DNA of 1,703 nucleotides from Escherichia coli. Lineage in GTDB: Bacteria > Pseudomonadota > Gammaproteobacteria > Enterobacterales > Enterobacteriaceae. Of this stretch, positions 264 through 334 are shown piece by piece. The stretch is taken from NCBI RefSeq assembly GCF_003334255.1, contig NZ_QOWU01000152.1; one strand, written 5' to 3'. Under the pieces are notes generated by a model. It saw nothing but the letters and a program-made list of their open reading frames with translations. It was not told the DNA's origin and did not search any database. The translations under genes were made by a program, and so were the position numbers. Numbering within the stretch: position 1 is the stretch's first letter; the number at the start of each line of letters is the position of its first letter.

Positions 264-300
264 AGGGCTATCTGACGACTCATCCCCGAAAGAACAACAA

Positions 301-334
301 CGGGATCACCGACAACATGCGAGAGGTGATCCCG
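301..334 (-). terminator. Candidate intrinsic terminator on the minus strand (10-bp GC-rich stem)
   Basis: CGGGATCACC (301-310) and GGTGATCCCG (325-334) are perfect reverse complements with a 14-nt loop. On the minus strand the stem is followed by TTGTTGTTCTTTC (complement of 288-300). The loop is longer than in a classic terminator, so confidence is low. Confidence 0.3.

Follow-up and report, generated by a model that had tools for sequence, protein, structure and literature searches.

A lineage-specific palindrome beside a probable ColE1-type primosome assembly site in a 1.5-kb cryptic plasmid of Escherichia coli

A perfect GC-rich palindrome, followed on the minus strand by a T-rich stretch, lies in noncoding DNA of a small Escherichia coli plasmid. 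Does it end a transcript, bind a protein, prime a transferred strand, or belong to an element that acts as single-stranded DNA? Here, we report that the region is very probably a ColE1-type single-strand initiation site and that the palindrome is probably the 5' flank of that site (ssiA, or n'-pas, a PriA-dependent site), in which its role would be passive.

The window (the whole stretch of DNA that was analyzed, 1703 nt) is a cryptic E. coli plasmid of 1546 bp, circular and of the Col(MG828)/pKL1 type, plus a 157-nt wrap-around; window 1-157 recurs at 1547-1703. Window 1-1546 was 100% identical to NZ_CP073928.1 (E. coli, circular, 1546 bp, Col(MG828)-typed), whose sole gene encodes a helix-turn-helix Rep. 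Many Col(MG828)-typed 1546-bp records were 99 to 100% identical to the window, and several hundred near-identical records came from Escherichia, Klebsiella, and Shigella. The Rep gene and the DNA upstream of it are laid out as follows.

907-1383, plus strand: repA (158 aa; HTH_36 helix-turn-helix, weak RepL match), the only convincing gene.
About 715-770: AT-rich stretch upstream of repA.
774-821: inverted and direct repeats upstream of repA.

A paper on related replicons reports the pKL1 origin to be located upstream of rep, where it comprises an IHF box, an inverted repeat, and Rep-binding sites (PMC3832669). No rolling-circle Rep family was found among the Pfam or NCBIfam matches of the window, and the only protein was the HTH_36 Rep with its weak match to RepL. 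A single-strand origin (sso) of a rolling-circle plasmid, which is the partner of an HUH Rep and a double-strand origin, was considered and rejected.

Six positions (78, 82, 100, 112, 142, and 145) distinguished the wrap-around copy from the first one, each with T in the first and A in the wrap-around. The A alleles occurred in 0 of ~45 related copies, and, by eye, several of the changed T's belonged to small local stems (75-83/104-112 and 138-142/147-151). These differences look like a sequencing or assembly artifact at the contig end; a DGR-like reading of them was dropped, there being no reverse transcriptase and the second copy being the mere circular wrap-around. The same noncoding segment (1-157), ~90 to 100% identical among the relatives compared, holds a perfect small hairpin at window 8-27 (GTCTGGGG-AGAA-CCCCAGAC; 8-bp stem, 4-nt loop).

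The palindrome and the tract beside it read as follows.

301-334: palindrome (hairpin A), with arms CGGGATCACC (301-310) and GGTGATCCCG (325-334), complementary at 10 of 10 positions, and a 14-nt loop (311-324).
288-300: A-rich tract, GAAAGAACAACAA on the plus strand; its minus-strand reading, TTGTTGTTCTTTC, is an interrupted T/U-tract.

The earlier note on this DNA had described a perfect 10-bp GC-rich stem here, and the description was accurate in its coordinates and in the full (100%) complementarity of the arms. Seven of the 10 perfect pairs are G-C, and each arm carries a GATC (Dam) site (304-307 and 328-331, 24 bp apart). Taken alone, the stem had a predicted energy of -18.1 kcal/mol as minus-strand RNA, -11.2 kcal/mol as plus-strand DNA, and -10.7 kcal/mol as minus-strand DNA. 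Folded with its surroundings, a 66-nt minus-strand RNA reached -25.3 kcal/mol (z = -1.84; 8 of 200 shuffles as stable), and the 131-nt plus-strand DNA of 290-420 reached -22.0 kcal/mol (z = -2.64; 0 of 200 shuffles). Of 400 shuffles of the 1546-bp plasmid that preserved its dinucleotides, 11 (~0.03) contained a perfect inverted repeat 10 bp or longer around a loop of 3 to 20 nt. The perfect 10-bp stem is nominally nonrandom, mildly improbable by chance, and not striking. Folds of the whole region 160-420 were no more stable than shuffles on either strand, and for this reason we make no claim of a larger structured domain.

The earlier note had read the palindrome as a possible terminator of an unannotated leftward transcript. 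Such an intrinsic, Rho-independent terminator would consist of an RNA hairpin (334-301) with UUGUUGUUCUUUC behind it, at which RNA polymerase would be released, and might, for example, shield the upstream region from transcription originating at oriT or in the AT-rich region. The site resembles Rho-independent terminators in its GC-rich 10-bp stem (~5 to 14 bp being usual), which is strong as RNA, and in the T-rich minus-strand stretch after it; six of the first eight tail bases are U, which passes the tail rule of the scan used, the d'Aubenton-Carafa-type tail sum was 4.16, and two weak promoter-like sites (741->713 and 652->623, 8 of 12 matches) lie upstream on the minus strand. It differs from them in its 14-nt loop, interrupted U-tract, lack of an upstream transcription unit, and unconserved stem. 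A consensus terminator scan did not list the site, as the loop exceeds the 3- to 8-nt limit of that scan. The tail has two U's and then a G, and in the minimum-energy RNA fold it pairs into an extended stem. No conserved minus-strand gene lies upstream, no promoter at 9 of 12 matches was found on either strand, and an E-value scan of the whole window gave no Rfam match. In most relatives, the stem was weak (-0.4 to -8 kcal/mol) or absent, with no covariation on the minus strand. The A-rich tract itself (288-300) was kept in most relatives whether the stem was paired or not, with tail variants of three to six U's in the first 8 nt. The sequence also appears to be part of an element that acts as DNA, and a terminator is decidedly unlikely.

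The palindrome lies inside a 63-aa minus-strand open reading frame (221-412), present in the list of open reading frames, which the earlier note had dismissed on account of the hairpin. It was right that this is not a gene; the better reason is that the frame is not conserved. In relatives, one-base indels shift the frame of the N-terminal half, and substitutions are mostly amino-acid changing. RefSeq "hypothetical proteins" of 41 to 194 aa span the primosome-site region in related plasmids (L002 922-1047, L003 589-1173, and L005 465-728 [minus; approximately window 230-420 plus flanks]). Their frames are not kept between relatives, and these proteins are probably spurious.

Conservation was assessed on ~45 homologous copies collected from plasmid records and from metagenome and genome contigs. 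Exact 17-mer scans (GCGGAAGAGAACCGGAA) of the contigs gave mostly chance matches, and BLAST filtering retained ~45 real homologues; hairpin A was aligned across 21 distinct family sequences. The exact palindrome occurred in nine of the loci examined. Among 689 plasmid records covering the 60-nt region, 50 were at least 99% identical to it, 140 were 95 to 99% identical, and 464 fell below 95%; the perfect stem is therefore a minority state.

Across the 21 sequences, 80.5% of hairpin A cells were paired on the plus strand (shuffle mean, 79.8%; 115 of 500 shuffles as high). Just one pair showed any change on both sides, and the central two pairs were unpaired in 15 and 11 of the sequences. The reverse-complement alignment, in which A-C mismatches turn into G-U pairs and which tests the reading as minus-strand RNA, gave 82.9% (460 of 500 shuffles as high). 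Neither strand showed covariation in hairpin A (21 distinct relatives, 500 shuffles). Its DNA energy was -10.8 to -11.2 kcal/mol in three variants only and -7.2 to +6.3 kcal/mol in the others, and its minus-strand RNA energy ranged from -18 to +0.7 kcal/mol. Left-arm and right-arm variants were combined in many ways, a pattern that drift and recombination would produce, and both GATC sites were lost in most relatives; a GGATC...GATCC core preceded by A10 was present in a distant MOBQ plasmid (L007). Hairpin A is perfect in this plasmid lineage only and is not a conserved element. An imperfect version persists family-wide at ~80% paired, against 29 to 51% (plus strand) and 27 to 61% (minus strand) in slid-partner controls, which leaves room for some constraint on its pairing.

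A smaller hairpin uses the right arm of hairpin A and competes with it.

319-339, plus strand: hairpin B, formed by GCGAG (319-323) with CTCGC (335-339) and GG (325-326) with CC (332-333).

Of the 21 distinct family sequences, 17 included hairpin B in their minimum-energy fold and had it as the more stable of the two hairpins; the other four were the three perfect-stem sequences and an IncX4 locus (L006), which has a shifted version. It was almost invariant (92.9% of cells paired; inner helix GGT/ACC or GG/CC), with DNA energies of -6.7 to -7.6 kcal/mol in most relatives. Within the window, hairpin A (-11.2 kcal/mol) stands against a hairpin B of -6.7 kcal/mol.

The structure that is conserved across replicon types begins inside the right arm of the palindrome and extends away from it.

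332-385, plus strand: conserved long hairpin (54 nt; candidate primosome-assembly-site core) from an RNAalifold consensus of 19 diverse sequences, holding an AAGCGG motif.
332-336 with 381-385 (CCGCT/AGCGG) and 339-340 with 378-379 (CC/GG): its closing helix.
349-350 with 370-371, 354 with 366, and 357-358 with 362-363: its inner pairs.
332-390, plus strand: ColE1-homologous segment (ColE1 1309-1367, on the same strand as RNA II; 83% identity).

In the 19 sequences, drawn from all replicon types, 97.4% of the cells of hairpin 332-385 were paired, against 23 to 43% in slid controls. Cells changed on both sides numbered 12 (3.8 ± 1.5 in shuffles), and the covariation score was 0.216 (0.144 ± 0.013); 0 of 500 shuffles reached the observed values. 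The relatedness of the sequences inflates these pairing and covariation figures, and the contrast between 332-385 and hairpin A is clear even so. The earlier note had suggested a single-strand origin as another possible role; the neighborhood does match a ColE1-type single-strand initiation site, but the conserved hairpin is 332-385 and not the palindrome. Only 3 nt of the right arm of hairpin A overlap it. The left arm (301-310) falls beyond the stretch that can be aligned with ColE1, and a weaker similarity to ColE1-like plasmids begins at ~318.

That overlap allows a regulatory reading of the palindrome, in which the left arm would sequester the right arm, block hairpin B and the first three pairs of the closing helix, and so tune PriA-dependent priming and copy number. 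Hairpins A and B cannot form together, and it is in the window alone that A is favored, by ~4.5 kcal/mol; A also overlaps the 332-385 helix by the same 3 nt, and the stem is perfect or nearly so with either of two central pairs, G-C (the window) or A-T (another relative, L242). Against such a fold, no covariation signal was seen, and the arm types are mixed in many combinations, as drift and recombination would give; we give it little chance. In a related form of the idea, the perfected palindrome would be a selected structural switch that either sequesters the 5' strand of the primosome-site stem or stacks on 332-385 as a better fork mimic. Were this true, which is unlikely, the switch would set the efficiency of PriA-started complementary-strand synthesis, and with it copy number or establishment after mobilization, in a plasmid that is among the smallest and most common in E. 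coli.

The position of the homologous segment in ColE1 (L008) bears on what it does. RNAI lies at 645-749 on the minus strand of ColE1 (Rfam), which makes RNA II a rightward, plus-strand transcript. The origin motif (ggagcctatggaaaaacgcc...) lies at ~1195-1220 and a DnaA box (TGTGGATAA) at 1272-1280. By the positions of RNAI, the origin, and the alignment, ColE1 1309-1367 is on the strand that leading-strand synthesis displaces, ~100 to 150 nt downstream from the RNA/DNA switch at the origin. The pBR322 version (CCGCTCGCCGCAGCCGAACGACCGAGCGCAGCGAGTCAGTGAGCGAGGAAGCGGAAGAGC) lies at approximately nucleotides 2350-2420 and is presumably the factor-Y effector site.

The element known as ssiA or n'-pas lies a short way downstream from the RNA/DNA switch, on the strand that extension by polymerase I exposes (PMC3167613, PMC3640518, PMC5935869). 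It recruits PriA and starts lagging-strand synthesis, and a DnaA box is close by (PMC3167613, PMC3640518); an 82-nt ssi at most 60 nt from oriV has been described with a stem-loop fold (PMC5935869). No ssi site was annotated in the records examined, and the site sequence, when sought in papers, matched only vector listings. We take ColE1 1309-1367 to be the putative ssiA on the basis of its position, the general statements in those papers, and the pBR322 factor-Y site.

A search of the plasmid collection with window 230-420 returned at least 5000 records, most of which covered just 318-420. The matching replicons included ColE1-like, Col(MG828), RepL-annotated, IncX4 conjugative, and MOBQ/Col156 plasmids, and this spread over replicon types fits a cis element served by host proteins. 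In the IncX4 plasmid (L006), positions 2938-3142 matched window 173-387 at 79% identity. An AT-rich region lies ~200 bp from this match; beyond it come five 22-bp iterons, two DnaA boxes, and pir, in that order. In the window, the module is left of the AT-rich stretch and of the inverted repeats upstream of repA, the same side and strand as in IncX4. In both plasmids, the module is ~100 to 440 bp from the AT-rich or iteron region.

Several features lie near this module. Window 173-290, upstream of the palindrome, is also kept in IncX4 plasmids and may belong to the same single-strand-active module. A small hairpin (ATGCCC-TGGC-GGGCAT) occurs at window 205-220, and a 22-nt direct repeat at window 171-192 and 240-261. 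Four metagenome contigs (L021, L045, L046, and L121) each carried two to five diverged copies of the module, at a spacing of ~1.4 to 1.5 kb or irregularly; they look like concatenated or coassembled small plasmids.

The same comparisons bear on the palindrome as a duplex protein-binding site, in which the 10-bp arms, 24 bp apart center to center, would bind a dimeric protein (RepA, or SeqA/Dam through GATC). A GATC is present in both arms, and the loop sequence CGACAACATGC (310-320) matches CGACAACACGC (815-825, in the repA-proximal inverted repeat) at 10 of 11 positions. By a rough estimate, about one such loop match is expected by chance in the plasmid, and the loop is kept equally in the IncX4 relative, which has an unrelated initiator; the RepA half-site in the loop was set aside as a chance-level match. 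The loss of the GATC sites and arms in most relatives and the reported location of the pKL1 origin and Rep-binding sites upstream of rep (PMC3832669) argue further against a protein site, which is very unlikely.

To the right of the candidate initiation site, the resemblance to ColE1 continues.

Within 617-676, read on the minus strand: nic region of a ColE1-type bom/oriT.

Window 617-676 corresponds to ColE1 1462-1521 (the bom/nic region) at 98% identity, in the same order and orientation as in ColE1. This bom/oriT explains the "mobilizable" typing of a plasmid without mob genes. Judged from these alignments, a ColE1 block (probable primosome site, then transfer origin) has been joined to a replicon of the Rep type. 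A 24-nt inverted partial copy of the bom motif (GGGTGTCGGGG..CCCTGACC) lies at 428-451, and an 18-nt palindrome at 457-494 lies between that copy and bom; window 434-515 is absent from one relative (L004). The 24-nt inverted repeat (428-451/653-676) was also considered as a Tn3-derived miniature element, a reading dropped once one arm proved to be the ColE1 bom region.

With a transfer origin next to it, the palindrome might instead help prime the transferred strand. After mobilization from a ColE1-type nic, the minus strand would enter the recipient, and the hairpin, ~290 nt from its 5' end, would aid the start of complementary-strand synthesis; the nicked strand and the direction of transfer are assumed here to be those of the ColE1 literature. 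The near-identity of the bom/nic region speaks for this, as does the palindrome's ability to fold just as well in minus-strand DNA (-10.7 kcal/mol). The stem, though, is degraded in most relatives that retain bom. Known primosome sites are strand specific, with the ColE1 homologue working on the plus strand, and the hairpin bears no resemblance to Frpo-type single-strand promoters. Such a role is highly improbable.

For the preferred reading, a ColE1-type initiation site with the palindrome at its 5' flank, the following mechanism may be proposed. The primosome site of phiX174 is a fork-like hairpin recognized by PriA (PMC5778457). From ColE1 and phiX174, we infer that, when the plus strand becomes single stranded during replication of the plasmid, 332-385 would fold into a fork-like structure and PriA would bind it. 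PriB, DnaT, and DnaC-DnaB would then load, DnaG would prime complementary-strand synthesis on the plus strand, and DnaB would move rightward, toward the transfer origin and repA. Which fork uses the site would depend on direction. With a fork arriving from the left, the site would serve as a lagging-strand start, as in ColE1; with Rep-driven unwinding leftward from the AT-rich region, it would lie on the leading-strand template (the plus strand). The G-site of plasmid R1 is on the leading-strand template. If forks do run leftward from a repA-proximal origin, the plasmid would differ from ColE1, whose site is on the lagging-strand template.

The palindrome would enter this scheme as an imperfect inverted repeat, adjoining the site on its upstream side, that has become perfect in this lineage. 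Sharing 3 nt with the closing helix and 10 nt with hairpin B, it may be at most an accessory or competing fold of single-stranded DNA. We take it to be dispensable (accessory or neutral), because most relatives are without a stable version.

An unannotated noncoding stretch of a very common 1.5-kb E. coli plasmid can thus be placed, with good confidence, as a ColE1-type primosome site beside a ColE1-type transfer origin, and the eye-catching palindrome is not its conserved element. One cis module appears to be common to ColE1, Col(MG828), RepL-like, IncX4, and Col156 plasmids, which suggests that host-dependent priming signals move between plasmids. Such movement is expected from the classical ssi literature. 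Both the plasmid family (pKL1, Col(MG828)) and the type of element have long been known.

Set beside known systems, the window is itself a member of the pKL1/Col(MG828) 1.5-kb E. coli cryptic plasmids, its sole difference being the six T-to-A changes of the wrap-around copy. Plasmid R1 has a G4-type ssi, a leading-strand priming site ~400 bp from oriR that is primase-only and not of the PriA type. A possible likeness to R1 is one of geometry: an initiation signal that lies a few hundred base pairs from an origin opened by Rep, on the template for the fork leaving rep. To the phiX174 site, set beside the window by description, a likeness in principle may be proposed, namely, a hairpin of single-stranded DNA that mimics an abandoned fork and recruits PriA (PMC5778457); that site differs in being the complementary-strand origin of a phage, not a plasmid element. 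A counterpart that is the same in core sequence and fold is ssiA (n'-pas, rriA) of ColE1 and pBR322. The window differs from ColE1 in being a Rep/iteron-type replicon, without RNA I/RNA II and without an adjacent DnaA box, and in having the A-rich tract and the palindrome in place of the ColE1 sequence upstream of the core. It resembles ColE1 in its 83% identity over 60 nt to the segment at the ssiA position, on the same strand, in the common CCGCTCGCC...GAGGAAGCGGAA core with the conserved long hairpin, and in the ColE1-type bom/nic that comes next, in the same order and orientation.
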